In this document: piece after piece, positions 33,975 through 59,229 of the stretch | How the letters are laid out: each line of letters starts with the position of its first letter | Numbering within the stretch: position 1 is the first letter of the stretch | Notes under the pieces: model-generated | What the model was told of the DNA's origin: nothing | Seen by the model: the letters and a program-made list of their open reading frames with translations, nothing else | The model's database searches: none | DNA from: a phage | Strand: one strand, 5' to 3' | Length of the DNA stretch: 64,000 nt | Sequence record: PZ338878.1 | Made by a program: the position numbers and the translations under genes

Positions 33975-34918
33975 TATAAATCCTCGATAAGCAGTCTGCG
34001 GGTTTCATTTAAATCATCAATATTGTAGTTATCTCTTACATACTTAGCAAGAGCCAATCCTTTCTCAATACAAACATCAGGAGATTCGATTAAGTATTCT
34101 ACAATATCTTTCCACTCTTTAACTGAATCAGCAAAGAAGATTAGATCTTTAAATTCTTCAGTATAGTAGTTCTCTCGTGGAGAACAAACGAGTGGCAAAC
34201 CTTTAGCACCAGCCTCAAGAATTTTTAAATTACTTTTGGCATTATTAAAATGATTATTTACTAACGGAGCTATGGAGATTTGATGACCATCGTATGCTTC
34301 CATATAACACTCATAAGGACGAATACCTTCATAAACACAATCTGGTTGAATATCTTCTTTAATTTGCAACCATTGAGCACTACTTAACTCTTCGTGATCT
34401 CTACGAAATCCACATAAAGTTAAATCTTTACCAAAAGTAGGAAGAATTGCTAAATCATGTTTATGGGTTTCACTTCCAGCCCAAACCAGTGGGCTTTTAG
34501 AATAACGATCTTTAGTAAGAACAAACTGTCCTTCATCAAAAGGTAGTCCGTTAGGCACAATATGTACATTATCATTGTATTGGCTTAATTCAACCTTTAA
34601 TGCTGGAGTTGTTGTAGTTACAAGATCGCTTCTTTCAAGGAACCATTTTAGGTCATCTCGGATTTGATTTTCAAATAATCCTTCCAGCATATGCCCTTCA
34701 GGAATAATTAAAGAATCATCCAAATCCATTACCAATTTAAACCCAAGCTGTTTAAGAGCCAGGAAACCTGGCTTTCCACGAGTTGGTACTCCATTGAATA
34801 CAAAAATATTATGCTTAGGATTAATAGTCAGTTTGCGTTTATATGGCAAAATGATTCTATGAAAGTCACATACACTATACCTTTCATGTCCACGTGTGTC
34901 AAGAATAATATTAGGCAT
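33974..34918 (-). CDS. putative glycosyltransferase (GT-B-like), paralog A
   Basis: Clear paralogy with the next ORF (LPFDEGQFVLTKDRYS...; SNLKILEAGAKGLPLVCSP); C-terminal E..K..E-like block resembles GT1-type nucleotide-sugar-binding region. Confidence 0.45.
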   Translation of the reverse strand: MPNIILDTRGHERYSVCDFHRIILPYKRKLTINPKHNIFVFNGVPTRGKPGFLALKQLGFKLVMDLDDSLIIPEGHMLEGLFENQIRDDLKWFLERSDLVTTTTPALKVELSQYNDNVHIVPNGLPFDEGQFVLTKDRYSKSPLVWAGSETHKHDLAILPTFGKDLTLCGFRRDHEELSSAQWLQIKEDIQPDCVYEGIRPYECYMEAYDGHQISIAPLVNNHFNNAKSNLKILEAGAKGLPLVCSPRENYYTEEFKDLIFFADSVKEWKDIVEYLIESPDVCIEKGLALAKYVRDNYNIDDLNETRRLLIEDL

Positions 34919-34929
34919 ATGGCTCCTTG

Positions 34930-35904
34930 TTAAAGACTTTCAATAACTTGACGACGCAGTTCATTGGCATCTGCAAGATTATAATTAAGACGAACGTGCT
35001 CTGCAAGCATCATACCACGATCTTCTGTGTATCTAGGGTTCCTCATTAGCTTGACAACTTCATAATGCCAAGATGCTTTAGAGTCTGCATAAATAACAGC
35101 CTTTGCATCTACCGGATTGAAGTACGGCAGCACAGGAGAACAGATAATAGGAAGACCCTTTGCACCTGCTTCCAAAATCTTCAAATTGCTTTTACAGTTG
35201 TTGAAGTCATTATCTACCAGAGGAGCAATTGCAATACTGTGACCGTCATACACAGACATATACTCACCTAAATTTTTAATAGCTGGTTTATACTGTGCAT
35301 TTGGAATTTTACGTTTTACTTTAACCCACTCCGCAGTAGTTAGATACTGACTATTATTTCCAACAGGTGCAGAAGGATACACTTCATACCCTGCAATTGT
35401 CAATAGTGTATCATCAAATGTATTAGCTACAAGAGATAAATCAGGTTCATGGCTTGCTCCTCCAGCCCAAATAATAGGCGTGTCAGAATAACGGTCTTTT
35501 GTCAAAGTAAATTGACCTTCATCGTAAGGTAGTGCGTTTCTAATAACGACAACATTACGATTTAAATGACGAATTTTGTAAGCCAGATATTCTGTTGTTA
35601 CAGTAACAACATCTGCTAACTTAATCATCTCTACAATAGTCTTTGAGTGATTAGTAAACACGCCAGCCATATAATGTTCAGGATTAAGTGAATAAAAGTC
35701 ATCTAAATCAACAATAATCTTAACACCTTGTGCCTTCAGGCGTTTAACTTCGTCTGATCCACGAGAATACACTCTATTAAAAACTAAAACGTCTTTCTTA
35801 GGCTTAAACGTATTTCCCGCAAATGGCATTACAATACGATGGTAATCACAACCACTGCCTAACTTATTATCACACTTAAGTACAGGAGTATTAGGATTTA
35901 CCAT
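34930..35904 (-). CDS. putative glycosyltransferase (GT-B-like), paralog B
   Basis: ORF-track 34930-35943; start probably at internal Met (MVNPNTPVL), aligning with paralog A; LPYDEGQFTLTKDRYS and SNLKILEAGAKGLPIICSP. Confidence 0.45.
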   Translation of the reverse strand: MVNPNTPVLKCDNKLGSGCDYHRIVMPFAGNTFKPKKDVLVFNRVYSRGSDEVKRLKAQGVKIIVDLDDFYSLNPEHYMAGVFTNHSKTIVEMIKLADVVTVTTEYLAYKIRHLNRNVVVIRNALPYDEGQFTLTKDRYSDTPIIWAGGASHEPDLSLVANTFDDTLLTIAGYEVYPSAPVGNNSQYLTTAEWVKVKRKIPNAQYKPAIKNLGEYMSVYDGHSIAIAPLVDNDFNNCKSNLKILEAGAKGLPIICSPVLPYFNPVDAKAVIYADSKASWHYEVVKLMRNPRYTEDRGMMLAEHVRLNYNLADANELRRQVIESL

Positions 35905-36577
35905 ATTTTTGAGCCTCCTCATAAGAGATAAAAGTTTTACCATTGCGAAGATCCTCCAGTGATTGTTTATATTGTTCCCAGTTTACACCAATCCCCTGTT
36001 CTTTCTCTTCTTTTGACAGATTCGCAAAAGGTAAAGGGTTGTCTCCAAACACATCATCAGGATGGATAAACGCCATAATTCGAATAGGACATGGTACGCC
36101 CTGAATACCTCGGTTCAAACCTGCCAGTGGAACGCGCTGAATCCACTCTGCATCTTCATATCCATAACCGTGGGTGTATGAGCGGAAATAGCCAGCTTTC
36201 TCAATAACTGCACGGGAATACATACCAAACTGGCACATACCTAGTTCCCAAATAACCACTTCACCTTCAATACCTTTTACTTTATCTTTAAAGTATTCAG
36301 GCATACCAAAGAAATCCCAGCCATTTTCCTTAGCCTGTTTTACAAAATATGTTTCCCAACCTGGCACAACCGGATAGCAATCATCATCAAAAATAAACCA
36401 GTAATCATACCCTTCATCATAAAACTTTTTCATCAGTTCATTACGGGCATATGCAACACCTTTTCGTTCCCGATCATACTGTACAACAAAAGTAGCATTA
36501 GGATCAGTCACAAGATAATCTTTAAGAGGACGCTTACCTACAGTAATAACACCAACACCAATTTTTGTATTTTCCAA
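35891..36577 (-). CDS. putative glycosyltransferase (GT-A-like, DxD motif)
   Basis: YWFIFDDDCYPV motif after an N-terminal Rossmann-like stretch. Confidence 0.45.
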   Translation of the reverse strand: MENTKIGVGVITVGKRPLKDYLVTDPNATFVVQYDRERKGVAYARNELMKKFYDEGYDYWFIFDDDCYPVVPGWETYFVKQAKENGWDFFGMPEYFKDKVKGIEGEVVIWELGMCQFGMYSRAVIEKAGYFRSYTHGYGYEDAEWIQRVPLAGLNRGIQGVPCPIRIMAFIHPDDVFGDNPLPFANLSKEEKEQGIGVNWEQYKQSLEDLRNGKTFISYEEAQKYGKS

Positions 36578-36586
36578 AATAACTCC

Positions 36587-37150
36587 TTAAATAATTTTAT
36601 TCATGTCTTGACAATGTAAAAGGTGTGAAACAGCTTTTCTAGGATCATCGTTACCTAAACGGTATGTGTGAAATAAATATAACCCACGTAGTAAACCTAG
36701 CCTTTTATTGTTAGCGTGTAATGCTTTAGAGAAAATTATATCAAACTGTATTGATCTTTCCTCAAAAGGGATTTCATTCCACAGACTCTTACGAAAGAGA
36801 AGAAAGAATCCTGCTAAGATAGCATCTGTAGGTACTTCCTCTATTGAGTTTCCCCATTCTAGATGTGCTCTTTTTGCAATCTCAATGTGGTGTAATATAT
36901 TTGGATCTTCACTTCTTTCATTATTAAATAATTGATATGTTGATCCCAATCTATTACAAGATGCACCAAGAACATCAAAATCAGGATTTGAACGGACTAT
37001 TGATTCCAACCAAGCAGGTTGTTCTGGAAGAAGAAACATTGTATCAATGTCTCTTAGGCAAATCCAACTATCTTCTGGTAAGACACTTATTGTGTCATTG
37101 ATACCTTTTCCAATATCTCCAGAAAGATAGGGAGTTATGTGAAATATCAT
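36587..37150 (-). CDS. hypothetical protein, possibly glycosyltransferase-like
   Basis: 187 aa; LRDIDTMFL acidic motif; adjacent to glycosyltransferase genes. Confidence 0.3.
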   Translation of the reverse strand: MIFHITPYLSGDIGKGINDTISVLPEDSWICLRDIDTMFLLPEQPAWLESIVRSNPDFDVLGASCNRLGSTYQLFNNERSEDPNILHHIEIAKRAHLEWGNSIEEVPTDAILAGFFLLFRKSLWNEIPFEERSIQFDIIFSKALHANNKRLGLLRGLYLFHTYRLGNDDPRKAVSHLLHCQDMNKII

Positions 37151-38500: not shown

Positions 38501-39103
38501 TTAGATATTGTAAACCTTTGTATGAGTTACTACACCATCTTCTACAAAATCAATACGTTCTTGATCCGTAACTAGTGCAGACAACACTTTAAATTTAATT
38601 TTTACACGTTCAAAAGCTGGTTGACCATCTTTAAGATAATTATGTTCAGTTGTCACTGTCTTGTTTACAAAATCAACTTTTGCTTTACCGTTCTCGCGTA
38701 AGTGGAATGTTTTTCCTGCTTTATACACAATTTCAACATTACCTTCGAGAGTAATTCCTTCAAAAAGTTCACCCTCTTCTTCATTTTCTTCACTTTTGAA
38801 CAGACGACGAAACTCTTCCATATCAAGATAAACAACATCTTCAGAATAACTATCAGTAAGATATGTCTTACCCTCCATTAACCCGAAATATTGCCAGATT
38901 GCCGAATAAACATCACTAGATGATCCAAGGGTTTCTCTGAGTTTAGTTCCACGGATTACTTCATAAACTTCAAAATTGAAACCAGACTGCAAAGCATCAA
39001 ACAGCACATCACTAACTTCTAAAGCATAATCTTCATTGTTGTCAATATCTACAAGAAAATTGCCGCTACGAATAAGTTTTTGACCTTCTAAAGTAATACT
39101 CAT
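38501..39103 (-). CDS. hypothetical protein
   Basis: 200 aa acidic ORF. Confidence 0.45.
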   Translation of the reverse strand: MSITLEGQKLIRSGNFLVDIDNNEDYALEVSDVLFDALQSGFNFEVYEVIRGTKLRETLGSSSDVYSAIWQYFGLMEGKTYLTDSYSEDVVYLDMEEFRRLFKSEENEEEGELFEGITLEGNVEIVYKAGKTFHLRENGKAKVDFVNKTVTTEHNYLKDGQPAFERVKIKFKVLSALVTDQERIDFVEDGVVTHTKVYNI

Positions 39104-39119: not shown

Positions 39120-39150
39120 ATTTCAAATATGCGCCCCGAAGGGCGCTATG
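39120..39150 (-). terminator. terminator-like hairpin downstream of terD-like gene
   Basis: GCGCCC-CGAA-GGGCGC followed on the minus strand by a T-rich run. Confidence 0.5.
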
Positions 39151-39167
39151 ATTTATTACTTGATGTA

Positions 39168-39764
39168 TTACTCGAACCAATCGTCGCCAGCGCCAAACGC
39201 TTTAACTACATCGTAAATGTCAAGCCCAGCTTTACCTACACCATATGCTTTCAGTTTCCATTCGCTATCTTCTCGCACCAGGGAGGCAACGTGGCAAATG
39301 GTGTTACCTGCAAGTTCTGGAGCCAAGAAGTCAAAGTCCAGCAGTTCAACATTACGTTCATCATCGAAGATTTTAAGGAAACCTTCGGTAGCGTGACCAA
39401 GGCGTTTCTTACCCGTTTCGTCATCAATAGTAATTACGAATGCAATTTCCTGTGCTTCAGCAGAGATATTATCCAGTGTAACATCAATCTGCTCCATCTG
39501 TCCTACACCATCACGAACATCTTCACCTGCAAAAGTAGAACGTTCAGGATCAAATTTCTGTGCGTAGCACACCAGGTGACGAGGAGACAACAGTTCCGGC
39601 AGACCAGATGCATTGTGTCGGCAAATCAGAGCACTAACATCCAGATCCAGTTTTTCGTTAGATTTCCAAGAGAATTCCAGACGAATGCGTTTCAGTGCTG
39701 GTGCGATCTTTTTCAGAGAAACTTTTTCGCTAGAACCTTTTTTCAGGGAAATTTTCTGAGTCAT
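39168..39764 (-). CDS. terD: TerD-domain protein
   Basis: ISLKKG...VSLKK, DLDVSAL, FAGEDVRDG, EIAFVITIDD, EWKLKAYGVG match TerD-family hallmarks. Confidence 0.8.
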   Translation of the reverse strand: MTQKISLKKGSSEKVSLKKIAPALKRIRLEFSWKSNEKLDLDVSALICRHNASGLPELLSPRHLVCYAQKFDPERSTFAGEDVRDGVGQMEQIDVTLDNISAEAQEIAFVITIDDETGKKRLGHATEGFLKIFDDERNVELLDFDFLAPELAGNTICHVASLVREDSEWKLKAYGVGKAGLDIYDVVKAFGAGDDWFE

Positions 39765-39837: not shown

Positions 39838-40632
39838 TTACGCTTTTGCTCCGAATTTTTTAACCCACTCACCAAACTCTTCAGATAACAATTTATCGTA
39901 AAGTTCTTCATCAGACAAGGACAAATCTGCAATACCGATAAAATCAACATTATCGTACTCTTTTGCCAAGTCTTTCAGGAATTTAAAGTTTGCATTACCT
40001 ACACCAACCATAAACCAGTAAACAGGCGTATTGCGGTGTTTGTTCAGTAAGCTACGTACTGCTGAAGTATCCATGTTTTCCCCGTCAGTTTGGAAGAAAA
40101 TCATTGCAGGAGTACGATCAACTTGTGCATCAGTATCTACAACCTGTTCTACAACAGTACGTGTTACTTCTACAAGTTCTTTTTTACCAGTTAGTTTAGC
40201 AAGGAAACCCTTAGCTGGGACTTCTTCATACTCAACGACTTCGCGTGTAATATTTTTCATAGGTACACTACCGAAGTATGTATCATAGATCTCCTGCATT
40301 ACTGGAGCATAAGCAGTACCACCATTGATGCAAACATTAGACATGCAAGAGCCGACATAATCATCATACACATCAGCCGTTGCAGGAGGCAGTTCAAAAG
40401 AAGAACTATTGAAAGCCCACATGTCAATCTGTGCATTGTCATCAAACTTCATACCAAACGGCAGCAGTTTACCTACAAAATCACTAACAGTGCCATCACG
40501 ATACAGCTCACACATACTACCCGAAATATCTAAGGCGCTACCGACACGAAGAACAACATCGTTAATCTTTTTCTTACGCAGAGATACAGTAAGAGTTTCT
40601 TGACGTTTTTTAAGACTGATTTTATTGGACAT
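39838..40632 (-). CDS. vWA-domain protein with TerD-like N-terminal motif (TerY/TerF-like)
   Basis: N-terminal ISLKKRQETLTVSLRK then MIDAS-type DISGSM. Confidence 0.6.
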   Translation of the reverse strand: MSNKISLKKRQETLTVSLRKKKINDVVLRVGSALDISGSMCELYRDGTVSDFVGKLLPFGMKFDDNAQIDMWAFNSSSFELPPATADVYDDYVGSCMSNVCINGGTAYAPVMQEIYDTYFGSVPMKNITREVVEYEEVPAKGFLAKLTGKKELVEVTRTVVEQVVDTDAQVDRTPAMIFFQTDGENMDTSAVRSLLNKHRNTPVYWFMVGVGNANFKFLKDLAKEYDNVDFIGIADLSLSDEELYDKLLSEEFGEWVKKFGAKA

Positions 40633-40633
40633 A

Positions 40634-40903
40634 TTATTTCTCCTTTCTGAGTGTAATGTTAGTAACTTCTAAATCCACTTCTACCATTTCTGTATCATAT
40701 GAAATACAGCTAAGTTGACCTCTTTGTGAACCGTTCAGACACATTGCTTGGTTTGTATTAACTTTAATAAACACTAAGTTTCTGAACGTATCTAAACCAG
40801 AATCTTGATACGCAACATAATATACGAATGTATCACCTGCGTCAAGTTCTCCAAAACATTTAGGTTCATCTGATTTATCGTCTTTGATATTAAATTTAAG
40901 CAC
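40634..40903 (-). CDS. hypothetical protein
   Basis: 89 aa. Confidence 0.4.
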   Translation of the reverse strand: MLKFNIKDDKSDEPKCFGELDAGDTFVYYVAYQDSGLDTFRNLVFIKVNTNQAMCLNGSQRGQLSCISYDTEMVEVDLEVTNITLRKEK

Positions 40904-41459
40904 TGTCTTCTCCTTTACCTGCCCTCCAGCCTAAATAGAAAGCCTCTCTGGTGATCTTTTGCAACTCGTTTAAAGAGATAGTTACAACTAAATTATCTTC
41001 AATTTCTAGCTTTGAGTCTTCTTCTGTCTCAATGCAAGTATTATGCACTTTGTGGTAAGGATTGTCAACACGTTTAAATTTATTATTTTCAGTGCTGAAG
41101 AAGCAATCTGGATCTTCTTCTCCATCACCCCAACCCTGGTTAGGGTCTTCTTCAGATCTTTCTGTTGGGATCTCACCTGTAAAGTGCTCTTCTAATACCA
41201 TAGCGATACCATCTCCAAGATCGGAAGAGAACATCAAATTACAAACTTCTTCCCAAGGCATAGACCACTTAAATCTTTTACGATTACCATGTTTATCTTC
41301 TTCGTTAGAGAAAACACTACCATAGCTATCATAATTGCCATACATCTCTTCAACAACTTTACCACCTTTCAAAAGAAATAGGTAGCAAGGAGAACCATCG
41401 AAAGAGGTAGAAAGAGCAGCATTGCCAGACTCTTTGCACAAGAAACTAAAACACCCCAT
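40896..41459 (-). CDS. hypothetical acidic protein
   Basis: 187 aa; C-terminal motif LNELQKITREAFYLGWRAG. Confidence 0.45.
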   Translation of the reverse strand: MGCFSFLCKESGNAALSTSFDGSPCYLFLLKGGKVVEEMYGNYDSYGSVFSNEEDKHGNRKRFKWSMPWEEVCNLMFSSDLGDGIAMVLEEHFTGEIPTERSEEDPNQGWGDGEEDPDCFFSTENNKFKRVDNPYHKVHNTCIETEEDSKLEIEDNLVVTISLNELQKITREAFYLGWRAGKGEDSA

Positions 41460-41659: not shown

Positions 41660-41892
41660 TACACATTCTCCTCTTTTACCAATTCCATCGTTGAACTATC
41701 AAAACCATCTTTAGAAGAATAGGTATAGACAGAACGTAGTTCTCGCAGGACAGTAAATACATTAGGATCATCTAACCAAGCATCCTGGAGGAGAACATAA
41801 CGATCTTCATTGTCATACTGGACAGCAATCATAGAACCAGACAGTTTGTAAATTTTAATATTCATAATATATTTCTCCTTAAAGTAGACCAC
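41659..41892 (-). CDS. hypothetical protein
   Basis: 77 aa. Confidence 0.4.
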   Translation of the reverse strand: MVYFKEKYIMNIKIYKLSGSMIAVQYDNEDRYVLLQDAWLDDPNVFTVLRELRSVYTYSSKDGFDSSTMELVKEENV

Positions 41893-42982
41893 GTTTAACA
41901 GTTTGAATCATACCATCTTCAAGAGATTGCACTTCTTGAATGTAATCAATACGAGCAGCACGGGCTTCAGTGTTGATTCGGTTAGTTTCTTCCAACATTT
42001 TAACTAAGTTTTCTTGATCGCGACGTAATGTTTCAATATCCAATACTTGACGATTAGCAAGTTGCGTAGCTTCAATTTGGTTTTGTGCAGCCAGATCACT
42101 ACCCATTGCAATAGCAGCATTAAATTCATTCAGTACATTGTTCTGTGTATCGGCTGCTTTCTTCTGGCGTAGACTTTCAATATACATAGAAAAGTTTGCA
42201 GAGTAAGCAGGAATAACATTATTCACAATATTACGGGCTGATCGCATCAAACTTGCAGATACTTTCTGCATACTTTGTACACGTGGCCCCATCTGAACAC
42301 ACAGTAAACGCAAGGCTTTCAGGTCTGCAATACGAATTTCAAGCAGATCCATAGTATCACGAGTACGTTGACGCTCTTCTACTTCATTTTCAGGTAGTGT
42401 ATTAAGGCGAACTTCTTCTTTTTCATAAGTAGCTGTTAGAAGCTCTATATCCCTGTTTAAGCTAAGAGCATATTTTGCAATAGCCTCTTCTAAACGTTGC
42501 AGATATCGTAAAGAATCTTCTTCTTTTTTCAAGTCTGTTTGGAGTGTCTTTACCAAACCTTCAATACGATTATTGATGGTGTCAAATTCACCAAACAAAT
42601 CTTCTTTCATACCTAATACTTTCTTAACTAGTTTACCTAAGCCTTTAGATTGTTTAATAGAATTAGGATCAAGTTGCTTTGCTTGCTTAATAAGTGCAGT
42701 TAAACGCTCACTCATTTCATCTCCCTGAGATGAACGCTGGTGTTTAAGCACTTCCGCATTAAGGTTACGAAGAGTAAGTCCTGCATCAGCACCAACCTGT
42801 TCAATCTCTTCACGAGACATTGGAGGCAGCATTTGTACAGGTCGTGCAACAGCAGGGGCATATACAGGGCTTGCATCCATAGCAGTTGGAGCAAACAAAG
42901 ACTTACTTTTTTCTGTTGTTGCCGTGAATACACTCATTTCAGACGGTTTGCTTTTTACGGCACTGATAAAAGGACTGGACAT
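41879..42982 (-). CDS. telA: TelA-like toxic anion resistance family protein
   Basis: 367 aa, largely helical/coiled-coil, with size and pattern resembling TelA/KlaA; context with TerD/TerC. Confidence 0.55.
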   Translation of the reverse strand: MSSPFISAVKSKPSEMSVFTATTEKSKSLFAPTAMDASPVYAPAVARPVQMLPPMSREEIEQVGADAGLTLRNLNAEVLKHQRSSQGDEMSERLTALIKQAKQLDPNSIKQSKGLGKLVKKVLGMKEDLFGEFDTINNRIEGLVKTLQTDLKKEEDSLRYLQRLEEAIAKYALSLNRDIELLTATYEKEEVRLNTLPENEVEERQRTRDTMDLLEIRIADLKALRLLCVQMGPRVQSMQKVSASLMRSARNIVNNVIPAYSANFSMYIESLRQKKAADTQNNVLNEFNAAIAMGSDLAAQNQIEATQLANRQVLDIETLRRDQENLVKMLEETNRINTEARAARIDYIQEVQSLEDGMIQTVKRGLL

Positions 42983-43050: not shown

Positions 43051-43902
43051 TTAAACAAACATATCTAAATAATTTGTAGTAATAAATGCTCCATCTGCTT
43101 CCAGATTAACATAACCAGTAGCATTAGTGGTTAAGAAATCCAGATCGAAGGACTCTTTAACACCCCGTACCTCAACACGAGAGATATCGAATACAGGTAG
43201 TGTAACAGCCTCTTCGTGCAATACCGTACCTTTGTAGGTTGCCTTAATGATAAACTTGATATTACCCGTTCCCGCATCATACAAAACACTTTCAAAGCCT
43301 TTGAGAGTATACTTATCACCAGAGGTGAAGTGCAAAGTTGCTTTGTTTACAGTACGTTTTTTACGAGGAGTTCCTTTCACACGTTTATGATCACTACGTT
43401 TTTTGTATTTAGGAATGAATACAAACGATACACTCTCAAGAAAAGTATCAACATCAAGGATTTTAATATCCTCTGTTGCAGCAAATTTTGAAGTCGTTGC
43501 ATCAAAATGCTTTGCTCTGCGATCATACATAAAGATATCAAACCGATCTTCTAAATCAAACAAATTGTGTATCTTAATTTCAGAATGCTTGCACATTGCA
43601 GCAACCTTAAACTCTTCAAAACGTGGGTGTTCTACAAGCTCTTCAAGTTTTACACCAAAGACAGTATATTGTTTCGAAGTTTTTTCTGGCGTTGGCATTA
43701 CAGAAGCATAATCACCGATTGCGCTTTTAAAGCAAAATTGTTCTTGACCTGTATTTTTACCAACGAATTTACAGTATTCGTCATCGTGCATACTTTCTTT
43801 GGTAGTACCAACAAACTCAAAACCATCTTTATTCTTCTCAAGAATTTCTTGATTAAAGATCCAACCTTCCAGGCGATACACTTTACCAACTTCTAGTTTC
43901 AT
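43051..43902 (-). CDS. hypothetical protein
   Basis: 283 aa; basic patch KKRSDHKRVKGTPRKKRTVNK. Confidence 0.45.
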   Translation of the reverse strand: MKLEVGKVYRLEGWIFNQEILEKNKDGFEFVGTTKESMHDDEYCKFVGKNTGQEQFCFKSAIGDYASVMPTPEKTSKQYTVFGVKLEELVEHPRFEEFKVAAMCKHSEIKIHNLFDLEDRFDIFMYDRRAKHFDATTSKFAATEDIKILDVDTFLESVSFVFIPKYKKRSDHKRVKGTPRKKRTVNKATLHFTSGDKYTLKGFESVLYDAGTGNIKFIIKATYKGTVLHEEAVTLPVFDISRVEVRGVKESFDLDFLTTNATGYVNLEADGAFITTNYLDMFV

Positions 43903-43937: not shown

Positions 43938-44543
43938 TTAACGACGACGTGAGCTACTAAAACTACGTTTCGACGAAGAATAACTTTTCGAAGACTTACT
44001 ATAAGAGCTAATAGGGCTTGAGTAAGACTTACGAGCAGAGTAATCACTATTCACTTTTGTTGTTGATGGGCGTGAATACGTTTGTACACTTTGCTGCTTA
44101 ATTGTGTTTTGTTTAGTTGTTGTATATGTATTCCCTTGTTTATCATAAAAACTATGCTTTTGTGTTGTATATGATTTACTGTTAGTTGTAGGAGCAGCGT
44201 TGTTATTAATAATTGTTGTATTGCTACCGCCATCTCTATAACCACCACCGCCACTATTACCACTCAACATATGACCAAGAAGCATACCTGTAGCAAATTC
44301 ACCTACACCAGAAGAACCACTGCCGCCTCCTTGCACAACAACTGTTGAAGGCTGTGCAGGTGCTGCTTGAACAACTTGAGGTGCAGGTTGATTTACATAT
44401 TGTTCATCTACCATCTGATTTGGTGTCTGTTGGTAACGTTGGTTTTGTACATTTTCAGAATCATCACAACCTACCAGCAATGCACTACCTAAAACAACTG
44501 CAACAATAAAAGATTTAATGTTTTTCATTTGTAACCCTCTCAT
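43938..44543 (-). CDS. lipoprotein with Gly-zipper segment
   Basis: Signal peptide with lipobox (VVLGSALLVG-C); Q/P-rich linker; GGGSGSSGVGEFATGMLLGHMLSGNSGGGG; S/Y/T-rich basic C-terminus. Confidence 0.55.
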   Translation of the reverse strand: MRGLQMKNIKSFIVAVVLGSALLVGCDDSENVQNQRYQQTPNQMVDEQYVNQPAPQVVQAAPAQPSTVVVQGGGSGSSGVGEFATGMLLGHMLSGNSGGGGYRDGGSNTTIINNNAAPTTNSKSYTTQKHSFYDKQGNTYTTTKQNTIKQQSVQTYSRPSTTKVNSDYSARKSYSSPISSYSKSSKSYSSSKRSFSSSRRR

Positions 44544-44760: not shown

Positions 44761-45738
44761 TTAAGCAACAGACTGGTCTTCTTTTTCAGGGAAGATTAAA
44801 CTTGCAATAACACCCAGCCCCAGAGTACCTAACACAATATACATACTGATCGTCGGATCAATGTGTGCTGGCAGGAAACTCACTTTTGCGTGCAGAGTTT
44901 CTGCAAACGGGTGATACATCAGTTTTACACCCACAAATACCAGGACTACGATAACTGCTTTCTCCAGATGAACCAAATATTTCAGTGCAACACTAAGGAC
45001 AAAGAACAGAGCACGCAGACCTAAAATTGCACACAGCATTGAAGAAAATACAAGCAGAGGTTCTTGTGTCACTGCAATTACTGCTGGAACAGAGTCTACT
45101 GCAAAAATTACGTCAACCATTTCCATTACAAATACACAAACCAATGCAGGAGTTGCTACACGAACACCATTTTTGATTGTGAAGAACTTCTCACCATCCA
45201 TCTGATCAGATACAGGGAACAGCTTACGAACAATGCGAGTAGCCCAGTGCTTAGAGTAATCAACTTCTGCGTCATTATCTCCAGCAAATACCATTTTAGC
45301 TGCACAGAAAAGGATGACCGCACCGAAGAAGATATTAACATACCAACCCAAACTCAACAAGTAAGTGCCTACTGCTACAAACACACCTCGGAAGACAATC
45401 GCACCTGCAATACCCCAAAGTAGAATCTTGTGTTGCAAGTGTGTGCTTTTAATACCAAAACTTGCGAATACTGCCACAAATACTACTAAGTTATCTACAG
45501 AAAGAGATTTCTCCAACACATACCCACTCAAAAACAAGCTCGCAAAATCAGCACCGTGTTGGAAGTATACAAAACCATAGTAGGCTAACGATACCCCAAT
45601 CCAGAAAATTGACCAGCCAATTGCAGATTTAAATGAAATTTCTTTGTTTTCTCTGTGTCCAAAGAAATCAATACAAATCGACAAGACTAAAATACCCACT
45701 AAAACAACCACATCAATAATTGGGAAACCCAGTTGCAT
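44761..45738 (-). CDS. terC: TerC-family integral membrane protein
   Basis: 325 aa with multiple TM helices and the TerC-type LEKSLSVDNLVVF motif. Confidence 0.8.
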   Translation of the reverse strand: MQLGFPIIDVVVLVGILVLSICIDFFGHRENKEISFKSAIGWSIFWIGVSLAYYGFVYFQHGADFASLFLSGYVLEKSLSVDNLVVFVAVFASFGIKSTHLQHKILLWGIAGAIVFRGVFVAVGTYLLSLGWYVNIFFGAVILFCAAKMVFAGDNDAEVDYSKHWATRIVRKLFPVSDQMDGEKFFTIKNGVRVATPALVCVFVMEMVDVIFAVDSVPAVIAVTQEPLLVFSSMLCAILGLRALFFVLSVALKYLVHLEKAVIVVLVFVGVKLMYHPFAETLHAKVSFLPAHIDPTISMYIVLGTLGLGVIASLIFPEKEDQSVA

Positions 45739-46078: not shown

Positions 46079-46285
46079 TTATTTGTTAGATTGAAAGATA
46101 CCACGAAGTACCGCAAGAATGAACGTCACACAGACTACACTCCAAAACGTTACAGGAACATGATGCCAGTCTAAGCCGATAATGTCAATCATATAGTTGT
46201 ATGCTAAAAGCAGTAGCCAACTAGGGATTAACACAATCAAGAACACAACAATAAAACAACCTAATACTGCTAAAACACCTGCCAT
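46079..46285 (-). CDS. small membrane protein (two TM helices)
   Basis: 68 aa; VLAVLGCFIVVFLIVLIPSWLLLLAY and FWSVVCVTFILAVL. Confidence 0.45.
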   Translation of the reverse strand: MAGVLAVLGCFIVVFLIVLIPSWLLLLAYNYMIDIIGLDWHHVPVTFWSVVCVTFILAVLRGIFQSNK

Positions 46286-46294
46286 ACTTTCTCC

Positions 46295-47011
46295 TTATTT
46301 CAGTTTGTAAACAATTACATTTAAACCTTTGTTCACTAGAGTTTCTTCGATCATAAGTTTTACAATATTCCAAGAACCTCCAGCCAAACCACAACCAAGC
46401 ATTGGTAAACCTACAATTTTACCGCCTGAAGATACAACATCGTCTCCCATACTATCTAACGCATTGTAGATAGCTTCATAATTCAGGTCACGCTTACCTT
46501 CCTCACGACGACTATAACCATATTGTCCATATAAATTATAAATTGTCAAATTGTTTTCTGTATACTTAGTAAACGTACCTAATTTTTTATAATCACCACG
46601 TTTAGTGGCACAATCTGCTTTAAACGCACCAGGCCACTTGCTTTTAATTTTTGGTGCAATACCACTACCCATAGTGCAAAAACAGTTACAGCAGTGTGCT
46701 ATAGCGTCTATATCGCCTCTCTCTGCTGCTGCTAAAAGATCACCGTATACCTCAATGATACCTGGTGGATAACTTGTTACAATTTCATCTTCCCAGTACA
46801 TTTGCTCTACACCACCGATCAGTGCAAAGTTTTGTGTGATGCGATCATCAATATAATTAAGACCTGAAACATACACAGCATATTCATCCTGTGCTGTAAT
46901 GCCTTGTACACGAATTCTTAAGACACCATCTTTATCTGTTGCTACACGCCCAAAATCTTTTTCTGTAATATTGGTGATAGGATCTCCGAAAGTCGTCACT
47001 TTATTAGACAT
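46295..47011 (-). CDS. macro-domain protein (ADP-ribose binding/processing)
   Basis: ORF-track 46295-47077, start at internal ATG with AAAGGGGA RBS; GDIDAIAHCCNCFCTMGSGIAPKI and LPMLGCGLAGGSW resemble macro-domain motifs. Confidence 0.55.
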   Translation of the reverse strand: MSNKVTTFGDPITNITEKDFGRVATDKDGVLRIRVQGITAQDEYAVYVSGLNYIDDRITQNFALIGGVEQMYWEDEIVTSYPPGIIEVYGDLLAAAERGDIDAIAHCCNCFCTMGSGIAPKIKSKWPGAFKADCATKRGDYKKLGTFTKYTENNLTIYNLYGQYGYSRREEGKRDLNYEAIYNALDSMGDDVVSSGGKIVGLPMLGCGLAGGSWNIVKLMIEETLVNKGLNVIVYKLK

Positions 47012-47073
47012 AATAATCCCCTTTAACATTAGATTTGTTGATAATGTTGCTTTCAAAAAATTGACGCAGGAAA

Positions 47074-47862
47074 TCAAAGTTCTCTTTGTATTTTTTCAAT
47101 ATTATTGTAACCTTCTGCAAGGCAACCAAAGAACAGTTGTTCTACATAATACAAAGGAAGTTGTGAAAGTGCAATTTTAAAATCAACTTCGCTTTGACTC
47201 ATTAGATACTTAATAGGACGAACCAAACATTTAGCATCAGTTTCTTGCTTAATCATTTTAATAAAAGCTGCCAAGTTATTGATATAGTTGAAGTTAAGTG
47301 CAGCTTCGGTGTTGGCTTCTGTACCTTCATACTTTGCAAAGTACAGGAAAAACGTATCGTTTTCAACACCTTCTTTGTCTAAAATTTCAATAAGTTTTTC
47401 TTCGTGTGTTCCTGTAATATTAACATCATCAATGAAAATCAGAGTTTTATTACCCCAGAAATCACGATTGATAGAGAAAGTGTCACCATCGATCAAAGCC
47501 TTACGATCTTCTTTGCTAAGAAATCCATAATCATTGATATAACTCACTTTACGATGAACGATATCCCACTCTACTGCTTTACCTCCTTTGATAGAGATTA
47601 GGTAGTTGAGGTGATCTACAAAATGCTCAGATAACACTGTAGCTGCATTTTTCACATAGTTATATGGAGATGGAATAACAACAAAACTTTCATTTGCCAG
47701 TCGTTCTTCATACTTAGAAAAGAAACTTTCAGCCAAAATGCGCCCCATTCTTTTTGCTGCCTGGTTACTACCAAACTTTAGTTTGGAATAATCTGCAATA
47801 TTAAATTTTGCTTCCTTCAGGTTAGTAAAAGTATTAGCAAAATGTTGAATTTGATTACGCAT
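47074..47862 (-). CDS. phosphoribosyltransferase (PRTase)-like protein
   Basis: PRPP-binding-type motif KTLIFIDDVNITGTHEEK. Confidence 0.6.
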   Translation of the reverse strand: MRNQIQHFANTFTNLKEAKFNIADYSKLKFGSNQAAKRMGRILAESFFSKYEERLANESFVVIPSPYNYVKNAATVLSEHFVDHLNYLISIKGGKAVEWDIVHRKVSYINDYGFLSKEDRKALIDGDTFSINRDFWGNKTLIFIDDVNITGTHEEKLIEILDKEGVENDTFFLYFAKYEGTEANTEAALNFNYINNLAAFIKMIKQETDAKCLVRPIKYLMSQSEVDFKIALSQLPLYYVEQLFFGCLAEGYNNIEKIQREL

Positions 47863-48511
47863 TAATAAGTTCCTCTTTTTTAAGTTTAGCCAACAAGTCT
47901 TCTGGATTAATAATATGACAGAACTTCATCCCTATGTCAACAGCTTTTCCATCATAAATCAAACTATCTCCAACGTGTAAAATCTCCTCTGGTGCGAGAT
48001 CAAACGTTACCATTTCATCAAAAGAGAGTTTAAAAAACCTAGGATCTGGTTTACACAAGCAAAACTCATCAGAAAAATGCATAAAGTCAAATGGTAATTT
48101 TGTTAAGCCAGAATATACAGCTAAGAAACTACCTGGTACAAAATTAGTATTGCTCTTAATACTCAAAGAATAGATTGAACTCAGCTCTTCCAATTTCTTG
48201 CAAAGCTCAGGGTTCAATATTGGAGGATGTTTTATAAACATTGCTAAACAGTCTCTTTTTAACCCATCCACTTTATCAAGATCAATGTTCAAACGAGTAG
48301 AAAGTGTTTCCCAAGCATTCCTAGACGTTCCACAAATGCCTTTTTCTGCTTTTAAATCCAGGAGAGTTTTTACCTCTTTATATACGGTAGCTGCTTCTGC
48401 CTCAGAACAAGAGGCATACTCGGCAATAACCTTGTTGCGTTCTTCTGCATACAAAGGATTAGCAGTAATAAGAGTATTCCATACATCAAAAGAAATATGC
48501 TTAACAGTCAT
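47855..48511 (-). CDS. HAD-superfamily hydrolase-like protein
   Basis: ORF-track 47855-48529, start at ATG 48511 after GGAGG; motif I-like FDVWNTL, motif III K in CKPDPRFF, motif IV HVGDSLIYD. Confidence 0.5.
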   Translation of the reverse strand: MTVKHISFDVWNTLITANPLYAEERNKVIAEYASCSEAEAATVYKEVKTLLDLKAEKGICGTSRNAWETLSTRLNIDLDKVDGLKRDCLAMFIKHPPILNPELCKKLEELSSIYSLSIKSNTNFVPGSFLAVYSGLTKLPFDFMHFSDEFCLCKPDPRFFKLSFDEMVTFDLAPEEILHVGDSLIYDGKAVDIGMKFCHIINPEDLLAKLKKEELINA

Positions 48512-48884: not shown

Positions 48885-48912
48885 ATAAATAAAGGAGGCT
48901 TTCGCCTCCTTT
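48880..48912 (-). terminator. rho-independent terminator downstream of the ATPase gene
   Basis: AAAGGAGGC-TTTC-GCCTCCTTT followed on the minus strand by TTTATTTAT. Confidence 0.6.
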
Positions 48913-54701: not shown

Positions 54702-57476
54702 TTAGTTTACCAGTTTATTTATGTCTGGTAAAAGATTTATTTCACCTAAAAAATCACCTTCACCTTCCTCTAGCCAACTCTCATATGCTTGTGCATGATT
54801 ATAGTTACCATCAAAAGAATCTGCAACAAATTTTTCTACAGTTTTTCGAGATGTGCCAGCGCCAAATACACCAAGTTTAATACCATTGATCGGTAAAGTA
54901 GGGCTTGTTGGTACTTTCTCTGTTGCAACACGGTTGATATCTATAATCTCTTGTACAGTTGTATTCCATTGTAAGCATTTAACACAACGGGTATGCGCTA
55001 CATACAGTAAGTTTCGCTCTGCCTCTTCTAGTCCTACCCATTCACCAGTCTTTTTATCATAGTTGGAAGGAAAATCATTAGCAACAATAACCTGATCCCA
55101 CTCCAAACCTTTAGACTTATGTGCTGTAGTCAGTGTGACTTTTGCTGTAGGAGAATTTCTATGCGTTCTAAGTGTATGTGCTATAGTGTTTGCCTTGCCA
55201 GAAACTACGATGTTTAACAAGCGTTTAGCATCTGGATCAGCCTCTGCACACTCAACAAATTCATTCCAGTCTGCGTAAGGTAATACAGTTTCATGTTTTA
55301 CTTTCTCAATATCCCCTCTCCGAAGAGCATTAACACTATCCACCATAGAGATAAAATCCCTGGTATCTACGTTAATAATAATTTCTTCCCCATCTGCAAT
55401 ACGATCCATTGCCTCCATAAGCAAGGTTAAATTCTTGCGAAAGATGATAGTGTAAGGTTTTGTATAGTCTACAACATCTGATTTGTAGCTACCTACTACA
55501 GTATCAAAGCCTTTACCAACCAAAGGATGACGCAAAGGTTCTTTATCACTTAAAATCATATTCGCAATGTTTGCCACTTTGGGGCCAAAACGGAAGCAAG
55601 CAGTTAATGGAAGCTCTGCCCCATACTTAGCTGTTTCAATCATCATATTAGAGCTACCTCTAAATTGATAAATGCAGTTGTGGCTAAGAATTTCATTGCC
55701 AAAAAAGTTAGCAGTATCTTCTACTTCAATATCATAATAGATACCCTCACTATCTACAATGTCCACAATCTCTTCTGCCGTTACAGTATCACCATCTTTT
55801 ACTAACACAGACATGCCTTTAAACAAACCCGCTGCCGGAATTAAATTATATTTGGGAGTGTTCACAGAGGACATGCATTCTTTTAAAGATGCAAACGGAA
55901 CTATTTCAAGGATCTTTTGTGCAAAACTCAATGCTTCACGATAAGAATTGAAATATTTACGTACACGGTAACGACCTTCCAATTTAGCAACACTTACGCT
56001 TACACCTGCTTCAATGAGTGAGGCATAGATTGGCATTTCACTTTCTGTCCACTCAAAGCTAACTTGTGTTCCTTTACAACCTTGTGCTCGCAAAGTCACT
56101 GTTAACATTTTTCTTGCATCTACTGCACAATTGATGCTGTGCCAATGTGGATAAGCAAAATGATAGTCTTTATCCTCTAAAAGTTTAAAACCATTTTGTC
56201 CGAATTGTTCAAAGATATTGTTGATCCTTTCTTGATTAATACCGCGTGAACTTGCTTCAAATACACAAGTAGGAATGCCATATTGTAAACTGTATGCCAT
56301 TTCTTTTTCCATAGCAGCTTCACGGTTTTCAACAATATCCAACACCCACAACTTCTGTGCTTTTTCAGAACGTGTACGTTGCCCCAGTTTAGAAAAACCT
56401 TCTTTATCATCGAATTTGTTAGTGATCCCTACTCGGAAACCTAAATCTTTTCTCCACATTAGGTATACCACCATCTGATCATCTTTCAGAACATAAGGTG
56501 AAGCCCAAATACGATGGTTATGTGTCATATCTAAAGTCTTACCTTTAGCAGTAATAATATTCCTACCTTTTGTACGTGTAGATAAAGTCTTATTTGTTAC
56601 TTTTCTAAATGTAACTTTACCGTTAGAATAAGACTCTACCTTATCACCGATTTGCAGGTCTTTCATTGTAACCTGACCATTTTCGGTATTAAGTACCGTG
56701 TTTTCTGACACACATTGGAATTCATCACCAACTACCACAATTTGTTTGGCAGATTTAGCATTCCGCAGAATAGACAAGAATGCAGGGTTAACATCCTGGA
56801 ATTCATCCCCAAAAATAATGTCATAACCAAGATCAGCACCAGACAATTCAAACAATTTTACATAGGTGTCATGCGTCATCAAAGTATCTGTGTTAGGATC
56901 AATGCGCTCTCGCCACAATTGTTTTGCATACTTAACTACTTCTGTAATTAGTTTGTGTTCGTTAATACCTTTTCTTTTAATATCTGCAAGATGTACACCA
57001 GGAAAATGTTTACGGCTGATAAAAGGATCATCCGAAAATTCAAACTTACCTACGGTTTGCTTGATCATTAAACCAATCATAGCACGAGTTAAAAGTGTTT
57101 TCCCTCGTTTATCAATAAGATTATTAATCTTAAATTTCTTTGCTATCTCACTACCTGTACCTGCAACGTTAACATACTGTCCTTCTGGTCGTGACAGTTT
57201 TGCACGTAAACGATGATCCAGGAATTGATAGCAAATGGAATGCAATGTACGGCATTCTACATTTGGTGGCATCTTACGCCGTGCTTCTTCTGCCATGCTT
57301 TTATTGAAAGCTAAGTAAAGAATGCGATCTTCTGTACTGTTAGCCAGCAAATAAAGTGTTGACGTTTTTCCTGATCCAGATTTAGCTTGGATAGTTAAAA
57401 ACCGATGATCTGGAAAAGCCTCCTTAATAGCTGTTTGCTCTTCTGTTGGAGTAAAACTCAACTCTTTCTTAGCCAT
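54702..57476 (-). CDS. UvrD/Rep-like superfamily I DNA helicase containing an intein
   Basis: ORF-track 54702-57515, start at ATG 57476; Walker A AKSGSGKTST, motif II GDEFQD, motif III split by insertion (VVVGDEFQ | intein | CIYQFRGSS). Confidence 0.75.
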   Translation of the reverse strand: MAKKELSFTPTEEQTAIKEAFPDHRFLTIQAKSGSGKTSTLYLLANSTEDRILYLAFNKSMAEEARRKMPPNVECRTLHSICYQFLDHRLRAKLSRPEGQYVNVAGTGSEIAKKFKINNLIDKRGKTLLTRAMIGLMIKQTVGKFEFSDDPFISRKHFPGVHLADIKRKGINEHKLITEVVKYAKQLWRERIDPNTDTLMTHDTYVKLFELSGADLGYDIIFGDEFQDVNPAFLSILRNAKSAKQIVVVGDEFQCVSENTVLNTENGQVTMKDLQIGDKVESYSNGKVTFRKVTNKTLSTRTKGRNIITAKGKTLDMTHNHRIWASPYVLKDDQMVVYLMWRKDLGFRVGITNKFDDKEGFSKLGQRTRSEKAQKLWVLDIVENREAAMEKEMAYSLQYGIPTCVFEASSRGINQERINNIFEQFGQNGFKLLEDKDYHFAYPHWHSINCAVDARKMLTVTLRAQGCKGTQVSFEWTESEMPIYASLIEAGVSVSVAKLEGRYRVRKYFNSYREALSFAQKILEIVPFASLKECMSSVNTPKYNLIPAAGLFKGMSVLVKDGDTVTAEEIVDIVDSEGIYYDIEVEDTANFFGNEILSHNCIYQFRGSSNMMIETAKYGAELPLTACFRFGPKVANIANMILSDKEPLRHPLVGKGFDTVVGSYKSDVVDYTKPYTIIFRKNLTLLMEAMDRIADGEEIIINVDTRDFISMVDSVNALRRGDIEKVKHETVLPYADWNEFVECAEADPDAKRLLNIVVSGKANTIAHTLRTHRNSPTAKVTLTTAHKSKGLEWDQVIVANDFPSNYDKKTGEWVGLEEAERNLLYVAHTRCVKCLQWNTTVQEIIDINRVATEKVPTSPTLPINGIKLGVFGAGTSRKTVEKFVADSFDGNYNHAQAYESWLEEGEGDFLGEINLLPDINKLVN
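55677..56714 (-). mobile_element. intein (about 346 aa) inserted in helicase motif III
   Basis: Begins with Cys after DEFQ (CVSENTVLNTENGQVTMKDLQIGDKV), ends ...FGNEILSHN followed by +1 Cys; codons checked at both junctions. Confidence 0.65.
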
Positions 57477-57477
57477 T

Positions 57478-57954
57478 TCAACCTCTCTTAATTTGTTTAA
57501 CAAGCATAGGAACAAAATCTCGTTTTAAAATTTGTTCAATAATATGATCAGGTAGCTGTTGGAAATTATAATTAAATGCTACTGTCTCACCTTTAGGTGT
57601 TTCTACCCGCACATATAGCATGTTACGAAGTTTATCCACTTGTGCTGTATATTCTAAACCACGTAATTGATGCATTGCAAACATCAAATCATCAGTTTCA
57701 GTTTGGAATCTATCCCTTGTTTGCATCAAGGATAAGGCAAAAGGTAGATTTTCCCTAAGAGCCACCTTCTTAGGCACTAATGAAGGGAAATACTCCCCAA
57801 TAACTTCCTGTGTAAGCTGAATACACTCTTTTTCAAGCTGGTTTTGTTCCTTGAGTTCACAAACACTTTTTTGTAAAGTGTTAACCTCTTTTTGCAAAGC
57901 TGCTAGTTGAGTATTTAACTTTCTTTTTTGATTACGACCAAAACGTTTAGACAT
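57478..57954 (-). CDS. hypothetical coiled-coil protein
   Basis: 158 aa; basic N-terminus and coiled coil. Confidence 0.45.
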   Translation of the reverse strand: MSKRFGRNQKRKLNTQLAALQKEVNTLQKSVCELKEQNQLEKECIQLTQEVIGEYFPSLVPKKVALRENLPFALSLMQTRDRFQTETDDLMFAMHQLRGLEYTAQVDKLRNMLYVRVETPKGETVAFNYNFQQLPDHIIEQILKRDFVPMLVKQIKRG

Positions 57955-58499: not shown

Positions 58500-58940
58500 T
58501 TAAACGTTTTCTAAATCTTTTAAGGCATTACCCAACGTTAGAACAATAACATCGTTTGCTGCCTCTTCCCCATTGATATTGGTGAAATTTGGTGTGACAA
58601 AAGTAACCATATAAAACTCGTCCACCTGGAAGACAGCAATAACACCGTCCATCTTAACATCTTGACGAAAGGAAAAACCAATCATCTTCTCTTGCAAAGG
58701 CATATCCCCTTCCTTCATTACTGCCAGGGAGTTTTCAGGAATGTTATATTTATCTGCTCCGATGTAGATGTACGTAATGTTATCTTTATCGTGATGATAC
58801 AGGGTTGCTTTTTCCATATCTAAACCTGACAGATCAAATACGTTAATTTCTTGTGTAGTCTTCATAAATATCCTCCCAAATCCAATAATCATCTGTGTAA
58901 GTAGGATGCCTTTTATCCCACTCTGTTCTAGCCCAAGCAA
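58500..58940 (-). CDS. hypothetical protein
   Basis: ORF-track coordinates; true start probably an internal Met (MKTTQEIN...) after GGAGG. Confidence 0.4.
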   Translation of the reverse strand: MLGLEQSGIKGILLTQMIIGFGRIFMKTTQEINVFDLSGLDMEKATLYHHDKDNITYIYIGADKYNIPENSLAVMKEGDMPLQEKMIGFSFRQDVKMDGVIAVFQVDEFYMVTFVTPNFTNINGEEAANDVIVLTLGNALKDLENV

Positions 58941-59229
58941 CCGCTGCTACCAACACATCACCATGACAAGGTTGAGGTGAGCAGAAGCAAACTAAGTCTT
59001 TCCCTTCTAATTCTAACAAATCTTCAAGAGTGATTTTACCACAACGAATTTGTTCCCACAACCACTCTTTATATCTTTGTATAGTTGATCCTCGTGGTTC
59101 ATCATCCTTTAACTTAAAAGGATTTGCAAACTTTGAGGCTTTTAACCCCATATGAGGCATAGCTCTGCCAATGTACACTGCACCTTCAGGTATTACTTTA
59201 CCTAAATGGTAGAAATTTAATACTTTCAT
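58843..59229 (-). CDS. DUF4326-like protein
   Basis: ORF-track 58843-59253 trimmed to internal Met; GAVYIGRAMP...SKFANPF...GKDLVCFCSPQPCHGDVL recalled as DUF4326-type signature. Confidence 0.4.
   Translation of the reverse strand: MKVLNFYHLGKVIPEGAVYIGRAMPHMGLKASKFANPFKLKDDEPRGSTIQRYKEWLWEQIRCGKITLEDLLELEGKDLVCFCSPQPCHGDVLVAAVAWARTEWDKRHPTYTDDYWIWEDIYEDYTRN

Follow-up and report, generated by a model that had tools for sequence, protein, structure and literature searches.

A Ter-linked HAD/phosphoribosyltransferase gene pair beside a macrodomain gene in phi92-like coliphages

The locus

We analysed three adjacent genes in a 64,000-nucleotide (nt) stretch of a phage genome (sequence record PZ338878.1), hereafter the window. 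Its minus strand carries three co-directional open reading frames (ORFs), encoding a HAD-like enzyme (48511..47855), a phosphoribosyltransferase (PRTase; 47862..47074) and a macrodomain protein (47011..46295). An earlier note on this DNA had read these as a coupled trio of consecutive genes. The ORFs are present as claimed, and the three domain calls are right by Pfam and PHROGs, the latter giving strong matches for all three proteins. The trio, by contrast, is not one conserved unit. HAD and the PRTase, a member of family PF15610, form an autonomous, tightly coupled two-gene cassette of their own.

The locus belongs to a well-sequenced phage group. A 6.5-kb segment spanning the three genes shares 98–99% identity with many phi92-like coliphages (Justusliebigvirus, Stephanstirmvirinae), including phi92 and the BASEL phage EmilieFrey. 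In EmilieFrey the same genes are annotated as putative HAD-like protein, phosphoribosyltransferase and macrodomain protein. Annotations of the trio in the records of this group are already roughly correct, and the parts are of known kinds: a Ter-linked PF15610/HAD pair and an AdfM/SCO6735-type macrodomain. Other labels also circulate; in relatives' GenBank records 'phosphatase' is among the annotations of the macrodomain protein, and several near-identical genomes were deposited as 'Campylobacter phage', which looks like a mislabelled host.

The gene junctions are tight, as they are throughout this part of the genome. The HAD start codon (ATG, 48511) is preceded by GGAGGA, and 8 nt are shared between the HAD stop and the PRTase start (ATGCGTAA), an overlap that the earlier note had seen and that AAAGAGGAA precedes. 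The PRTase ends at a TGA (47076..47074). The note had this stop abut the macrodomain gene, which would require translation to begin at an improbable TTG (47077); the ATG at 47011 is the likely start, with the Shine-Dalgarno sequence AAAGGGGA 5 nt upstream, and it leaves a spacer of 62 nt. Across the block, 15 of 41 gene junctions overlap and 28 of 41 span at most 15 nt. Because tight spacing is the rule here, overlap says little about shared function, and we dropped it as a sign of coupling.

Both the spacer and the apparent abutment result from a frameshift specific to this window. An A-run in the PRTase gene (47096..47091) has six As, against five in EmilieFrey in the alignment of the two. 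In EmilieFrey, pEC-M2929-1AR.1 and ECGD1, the PRTase has 285 residues and its TAA overlaps the macrodomain ATG as ATGTCTAA; the relatives' frame extends to 47004, and the gene is annotated at 858 nt in the closest of them. Each of the 54 phage records with at least 95% identity spans PRTase residues 1–285 in a single tblastn piece, and pattern scans of IMG/VR found the six-A form in no contig and the five-A form in two. The extra A is thus unique to this window among the relatives checked. Either the mutation is genuine, and then inactivating or hypomorphic, or the homopolymer was misread in sequencing. As a result, the window PRTase ends at residue 262 and lacks about 23 C-terminal residues, including a conserved helical Y-x-x-N-F stretch.

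The HAD/PRTase pair

The PRTase matches Pfam PF15610 (PRTase_3) at E = 1.6e-38, with 133.1 bits against a cutoff of 28.7 and model positions 14–258 of 264 covered; phrog_13415 matches at E = 5e-152. Its phosphoribosyl pyrophosphate (PRPP) loop, LIFIDDVNITGTHE, is intact in the window and conserved in the family alignment (consensus LIFIDDVxITGTHE). An AlphaFold model of a 285-residue relative, with a predicted local distance difference test score (pLDDT) of 89.7, has a core that matches type I PRTases, namely HGPRT (E = 2e-6), PyrR and H. pylori ComF, together with a family-specific C-terminal helical region. The highest query-normalised template-modelling (TM) score among these matches is 0.42, for ComF. 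NCBIfam gave no match to the PRTase, and a profile search of PDB sequences returned no solved relative and one marginal match to the PRPP loop. Two labels given to the protein in GenBank, 'orotate phosphoribosyltransferase' and 'Zot-like toxin', drew no supporting match from Pfam, the PDB profile search or NCBIfam, and we set them aside. Our literature searches turned up no experiments on PF15610 or the phi92 genes considered here.

The HAD enzyme matches Pfam Hydrolase (PF00702, E = 8e-6) and phrog_14393 (E = 3e-119), while its NCBIfam subfamily matches all lie far under their cutoffs. Motifs II (SNTNF), III (KP) and IV (GDSLIYD) are intact. Motif I reads FDVWNTL (D9-V-W11-N-T13), and the earlier note was correct that its core is DVWNT and not the canonical DxDGT. 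The second residue after the nucleophile is normally an Asp that serves as general acid/base. Here it is Trp, and aligning 18 members from phages, rhizobia and Hymenobacter showed Trp11 in every one of them, alongside invariant D9, T13, S120, N121, K154, D182 and D187. The same motif I, FDVWNTL (DxWxT), is found in the best solved relative, PH0253 of Pyrococcus horikoshii (PDB 2om6; E = 2.5e-21, full length). The proposed hint of altered chemistry therefore applies to the whole family, with the Trp a family-wide hallmark rather than the mark of a degenerate site.

Motif IV is a Mg-binding GDxxxxD, which argues for phosphoryl transfer over dehalogenation as the predicted reaction. The exact chemistry is uncertain, because the general-acid Asp is invariably Trp. 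PH0253 gives no clue, since this archaeal structural-genomics protein, named 'probable phosphoserine phosphatase', has neither an established function nor a known PRTase partner.

The pairing itself is strikingly constant. In all 27 loci first fetched (15 viral, 4 metagenomic phage contigs and 8 Ensifer/Sinorhizobium), the gene just upstream of the PRTase, on the same strand, encodes a homologue of the window HAD and mostly overlaps the PRTase gene or is separated from it by at most 15 nt. The same order recurs on Rhizobium plasmid pRL10, on a Hymenobacter plasmid, and in Xanthomonas phage XaC1, Rhizobium phage RHph_TM61 and Caulobacter phage CcrColossus. Every locus with upstream DNA follows this pattern, across about 20 phage lineages and the rhizobial and Hymenobacter replicons. 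The PRTase is found in 157 of 50,697 phage records by tblastn, and relatives at about 50% identity number in the hundreds, many of them on phage contigs of 150–350 kb. On plasmids, tblastn matched only rhizobial and Hymenobacter replicons and gave no PRTase relative on enterobacterial ter plasmids; kinship with PRTases of those plasmids was accordingly dropped. The Ensifer neighbourhood of the pair (HipA, OmpW, ClpP-like) offered no functional clue.

The Ter gene block

The pair heads a co-directional stretch of about 9.4 kb, from 48.5 to 39.2 kb, that also encodes TerC, TelA, vWA-TerF and TerD proteins (Table 1). The earlier note had seen TerC and missed the other three, which lie further downstream. 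They were pointed to by clustering of neighbours, all against all over 19 non-redundant loci, and confirmed by Pfam. Among these loci the recurrent neighbours of the pair are TelA (7), vWA-TerF (6), TerD (5) and TerC (5 plus 3). TerD directly follows the PRTase in L002, L010 and L016, and on contig L002 TelA, vWA-TerF, TerC and TerD flank the pair. The Hymenobacter plasmid has a textbook Ter cluster, divergently oriented to the pair, with three TerD genes, two vWA genes, a PP2C phosphatase, a kinase and DUF475. A Ter neighbourhood is thus present in the window and in L002, L010, L014, L016 and L030.

This association has precedent. Anantharaman, Iyer and Aravind reportedly proposed in 2012 that Ter-linked PRTases and HAD phosphoesterases make a nucleoside-like metabolite. 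The window shares with that biosynthetic module the PF15610 family, the obligatory HAD partner and the proximity to Ter genes, and differs in being minimal: ATP-grasp, TIM-barrel lyase and TerB were not detected in the ORFs scanned. Iyer et al. (2021) described phage Ter systems with PRTase and HAD 'signal biosynthesis' genes in a jumbo phage and in some smaller tailed phages related to it, and proposed that such systems act against superinfecting phages (PMC7824862). Compared with the jumbo-phage systems, the block described here lies on a virulent coliphage of about 146 kb. Other papers have noted terC, terD, terF and telA in virulent phages. One option raised by the earlier note, a Ter-linked metabolite, appears right for the HAD/PRTase pair, which is conserved and recurs beside Ter genes. 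No PADLOC model matched the PRTase, HAD, TerC, TelA, vWA or TerD proteins at E up to 0.01.

Further genes fill the block. A small hydrophobic protein between the macrodomain and TerC genes has homologues at the same place in L008, L009 and L011. The lipoprotein-like protein has weak phmmer matches (about 3e-10) near the pair in L004/L005 and L014, to which compositional bias may contribute. Three proteins of 200, 187 and 283 residues (38501-39103, 40896-41459 and 43051-43902, minus strand) interleave with or flank the Ter genes; none matched a Pfam or NCBIfam family, and L008, L009 and L011 carry homologues of the last at the equivalent place. Two hairpins, judged by pattern alone, may mark the upstream (48912..48891) and downstream (39146..39131) limits of the block. 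A promoter and terminator scan gave counts not above those of shuffled sequence.

A separate observation concerns contig L002, a distant Ter-carrying phage contig that encodes a protein of the Acb2/Tad1-hairpin family, a known anti-CBASS/anti-Thoeris sponge fold, at 19368-19592, about 9 kb from its HAD/PRTase pair.

The macrodomain protein

The third protein of the trio has 238 residues and combines a macrodomain with an N-terminal extension. The macrodomain matches Pfam Macro (E = 2.4e-7). Among PDB sequences it matches 5e3b, 2fg1 and 2afc with E values of about 5e-15, and TARG1 with 4e-10, the span of the E values being 4e-15 to 4e-10. By sequence, SCO6735, BT1257 and TARG1 are the nearest proteins of known structure, with DarG next. 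Structural comparison of the model agrees, with TM scores of 0.87–0.90 to TARG1, 0.83–0.87 to BT1257 and 0.81 to DarG, and a range of 0.77–0.90 overall. The DarG models of PADLOC (E = 1e-13) and NCBIfam (E = 5.5e-13) also match, but the protein is no full-length DarG: only model positions 4–147 of 338 are covered, with 48.9 bits against a cutoff of 250, and the DarT-binding C-terminal domain of DarG is missing. No DarT-like gene was found among the neighbours of the macrodomain gene.

Homology links the macrodomain to enzymes that reverse ADP-ribosylation of DNA. It shares 30% identity with T4 Tk.4 over 139 residues (BLASTP, E = 1e-17), and Tk.4 is AdfM, which T4 requires for growth on DarTG2 (preprint 10.1101/2025.11.20.689424). 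Further phage 'orphan antitoxin' enzymes against DarTG are documented. SCO6735, whose fold the window macrodomain shares along with that of DarG and TARG1 (TM 0.8–0.9), removes DarT-made thymidine-linked ADP-ribose from DNA, for which Asn27, Gln85 and Gly128 are required (PMC9411070). Equivalents of SCO6735 His24, Asn27, Gln85, Gly126 and Gly128 are all present, in the segments AHCCNC, NLYGQYG and LGCGLAGG, and across 29 homologues N109, Q163 and the Gly residues do not vary. At the positions of TARG1 Lys84 and Asp125, the window protein resembles SCO6735 in having Gln and Ala. It has Cys at the position of SCO6735 Val25, whose role is assigned to the backbone. Most economically, the macrodomain would be an AdfM-like ADP-ribosyl hydrolase working on its own. 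The earlier suggestion of reversal of ADP-ribosylation as counter-defence thus appears right in spirit for the macrodomain, going by its homology to Tk.4/AdfM and SCO6735.

The distribution of the macrodomain differs from that of the pair. Its homologues occur in 2,969 phage records by tblastn, including genes annotated tk.4, making the family about 19 times as widespread as the PRTase. A macrodomain gene follows the PRTase only in Stephanstirmvirinae-type loci: directly in the phi92-like, L011 and L040 lineages, and with two extra genes between in L008/L009. Elsewhere it is absent from the vicinity of the pair or lies 6–8 kb off.

The N-terminal extension of about 87 residues is lacking in Tk.4, SCO6735 and most phage homologues. 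It matches no Pfam family, and its model has a pLDDT of 50–74. Word-indexed searches for it gave two fragments only, and exhaustive searches gave three informative relatives. The domain is fused to a macrodomain in P0127 and P0129, the latter from a lineage with 53% identity in which it directly follows the PRTase. In P0124 and in L008/L009 (L008 9227-9793) it is fused to a MazG-like all-alpha domain, and in P0125 to an unassigned C-terminus. The gene in L008/L009 sits downstream of the PRTase and upstream of the macrodomain gene; the MazG assignment of the 188-residue L008 protein is weak (E = 0.07) and mainly a motif recognised by eye. In all phage loci seen, including L040 (1038-1730), the N-domain lies close downstream of the PRTase. 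Taken together, these fusions suggest a small mobile module that is so far undescribed. Its presence on two apparent nucleotide-processing enzymes could reflect a link to the pair or plain domain shuffling.

Table 1. Features of the locus and the surrounding block in window coordinates
Feature	Coordinates	Strand	Basis
HAD-superfamily hydrolase, 218 aa, first gene of the HAD/PRTase pair	47855..48511	-	Pfam Hydrolase, phrog_14393
PF15610 'PRTase ComF-like' phosphoribosyltransferase, 262 aa here	47074..47862	-	Pfam PRTase_3, phrog_13415
Run of six As, one more than in relatives, leading to premature TGA	47091..47096	-	EmilieFrey alignment
N-terminal extension of macrodomain protein, about 87 residues, predicted all-beta	46751..47011	-	Model, six strands
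Macrodomain, residues 88-238, TARG1/DarG/SCO6735 (ALC1-like) class	46295..46750	-	Pfam, PDB, PADLOC, NCBIfam
Hydrophobic protein, 68 aa, probably two membrane spans	46079..46285	-	Translation
TerC-family integral membrane protein	44761..45738	-	Pfam TerC, E 1.2e-38
Lipoprotein-like protein, Ser/Gly-rich, lipobox LVGC, just downstream of TerC	43938..44543	-	Translation
TelA-family protein	41879..42982	-	Pfam TelA, E 5e-34
vWA-TerF-like protein	39838..40632	-	Pfam PF10138, E 1.2e-38
TerD-domain protein	39168..39764	-	Pfam TerD, E 5e-28
9-bp GC-containing hairpin followed by ATTTAT, between AAA ATPase gene and small genes upstream of HAD	48891..48912	-	Pattern match
Hairpin GCGCCC-TTCG-GGGCGC just after TerD stop	39131..39146	-	Pattern match

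Interpretation

Combining these observations, we propose, with a probability of roughly 0.55, that the trio is a juxtaposition of two modules, the HAD/PRTase pair and the macrodomain protein, within a phage-borne Ter block. The PRTase would use PRPP to phosphoribosylate a base-like acceptor, and HAD would then remove the phosphate to leave a riboside, which would be the 'nucleoside-like metabolite' that Ter systems have been proposed to make. The Ter block might in turn remodel or guard the envelope of the infected cell, for example by excluding superinfecting phages, aiding stress tolerance or interfering with host Ter. Separately, the macrodomain protein may strip ADP-ribose from phage DNA (thymidine-linked, of the DarT2 type) or from other ADP-ribosylated targets, a counter-defence that would work without the pair.

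The two-step chemistry proposed for the pair follows a known logic. In the dual-domain ribofuranosyltransferase 7shg, PRPP-dependent phosphoribosyl transfer and a dedicated phosphatase together achieve net ribosyl transfer, and the HAD profile weakly matches its HAD domain (E = 0.005). The likeness has limits: the PRTase parts have no detectable sequence kinship, the activities lie on two polypeptides here, and the window HAD lacks the Asp two residues after the nucleophile. CobT/CobC and BtrL/BtrP are further examples of a PRTase followed by a phosphatase. The conserved PRPP loop, the type I PRTase core of the model and the presence of HAD motifs I to IV make catalysis by the pair plausible.

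Several observations weigh against our proposal. For the pair, acceptor, product and target are all putative. With the general acid/base Asp replaced by Trp, 'phosphatase' may be the wrong label for HAD, and in this window the PRTase is truncated. The Ter connection is incomplete as well: the rhizobial replicons, XaC1, RHph_TM61 and CcrColossus lack Ter genes within about 9 kb of the pair, and 245 phage records contain TelA, many of them belonging to phage groups without PRTase matches. The anti-DarT activity of the macrodomain is extrapolated from homologues with 30% identity. Finally, two features of gene order leave room for a functional tie between pair and macrodomain: the PRTase-then-macrodomain order is kept although the macrodomains share only 47–67% identity (L008, L011, L040), and the N-domain can sit on a MazG-like protein at the same position instead.

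Such a tie is the core of the reading closest to the earlier note, that of one pathway in which PRTase and HAD make a ribosylated molecule and the macrodomain protein, tied in by its N-domain, binds, trims or recycles the product or an ADP-ribose-like signal. The conserved order extends across Justusliebigvirus, Phapecoctavirus-like (L011) and Klebsiella-phage-like (L008/L009) genomes and L040, the PRTase stop overlaps the macrodomain start in relatives, and the module just downstream of the PRTase is carried by either a macrodomain or a MazG-like nucleotide hydrolase. Yet the whole region is syntenic across Stephanstirmvirinae-type genomes, so the order may be mere inheritance, and overlap is the local norm. 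Moreover, HAD and PRTase are inseparable, whereas at least 12 other phage lineages and all bacterial loci examined have the pair without an adjacent macrodomain gene, and the macrodomain family is by far the commoner one (2,969 versus 157 records). The conserved residues of the macrodomain also serve ADP-ribose and not a 5-phosphoribosyl compound. On this distribution, in neighbouring loci and in phage records, we dropped the single conserved three-gene unit, and we regard one pathway as unlikely. A more elaborate version strikes us as slightly less likely still: the pair makes the postulated Ter riboside, the coliphage carries a minimal, self-contained Ter machine of this pair with TerD, vWA-TerF, TelA and TerC, and the N-domain macrodomain, or in sister lineages the MazG-like protein found at that position, tunes or degrades the signal. 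If that were true, the trio would be a signal-on/signal-off unit and not a chance neighbourhood.

Other chemistries for the pair appear more doubtful. Salvage of nicotinamide, nicotinate or purine by the PRTase, with HAD and the macrodomain protein processing by-products, could replenish NAD+ or nucleotides against NAD-depleting defences. In some phages the pair does neighbour a Nudix gene: RHph_TM61 has a Nudix protein (annotated NMN adenylyltransferase/Nudix) 250 nt downstream, and XaC1 and L004 have both Nudix and macrodomain genes within 8 kb. The PRTase fold is closest to purine PRTases, but this similarity extends to the generic type I core only (TM about 0.3–0.4), and the protein matches PF15610 alone, with no match to NAPRTase/NamPT or Prs-like families, PADLOC or NCBIfam. 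The phage systems NARP1 and NARP2 use Prs-like Adps, NamPT-like Namat and Nmnat. They resemble the trio in being phage-encoded, in PRPP/ADP-ribose chemistry and in potential anti-defence activity; their enzyme families are unmatched by the trio, and a NamPT- or Prs-type (NARP-like) identity was dropped. In addition, a 5'-nucleotidase beside a salvage PRTase would reverse salvage, and the linkage to Ter genes would be left unexplained, all of which makes salvage improbable. We give even less credence to PRPP-dependent ribosylation followed by dephosphorylation of a tRNA, an RNA end or an envelope component, within the toolkits that large phages have for RNA repair or the cell surface. This idea draws on some large phages in which the pair has as neighbours an RNA ligase, DUF2828+DUF7788, a 2H-like protein and an enzyme of the CCA-adding/poly(A)-polymerase type (L003, L004, XaC1; RNA ligase also in L002). 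It also draws on the 'ComF-like' PRTase with its top TM score to ComF, and on the weak HAD match to 7shg as an illustration of phosphoribosylation followed by dephosphorylation. These RNA-enzyme neighbours are confined to a few related large-phage lineages, typical of accessory-gene regions, and neither the window nor the bacterial loci have them; the PRTase and HAD yielded no nucleic-acid-binding domain.

Other features of the window

Three further features lie outside the Ter block. A DUF4326 protein (58843-59229, minus strand) was recognised at E = 1.4e-21; Iyer et al. (2021) predict that DUF4326 links NAD+/ADP-ribose systems with DNA modification (PMC7824862). A UvrD/Rep-family helicase ORF (54702-57515, minus strand; 937 residues) has a Hint/intein-type insertion at about residues 267–613. 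Its orthologues in EmilieFrey and BME3 have 578 residues, so this genome carries an intein that is absent there. At 33974-37150 (minus strand), beside primase/helicase and DNA polymerase genes, four consecutive genes are glycosyltransferases according to relatives' annotation. Pfam supports one of the four, and another has a weak, sub-threshold match to a TET-associated glycosyltransferase family; the cluster may serve modification of DNA or of a surface glycan.

Implications

Neither the Ter pair nor the macrodomain protein overturns current views. What the pair makes and what Ter blocks do in phages are questions worth experiment. On the reading we prefer, two modules side by side, each has its own interest. 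The macrodomain protein is a candidate factor, from outside the T4 group, against DarT2 or ADP-ribosylation. The phi92-like phages, which are represented in BASEL, grow on E. coli K-12 and are easily engineered, carry a compact Ter set together with the simplest biosynthetic pair, and this makes them a practical place to seek the predicted Ter metabolite.

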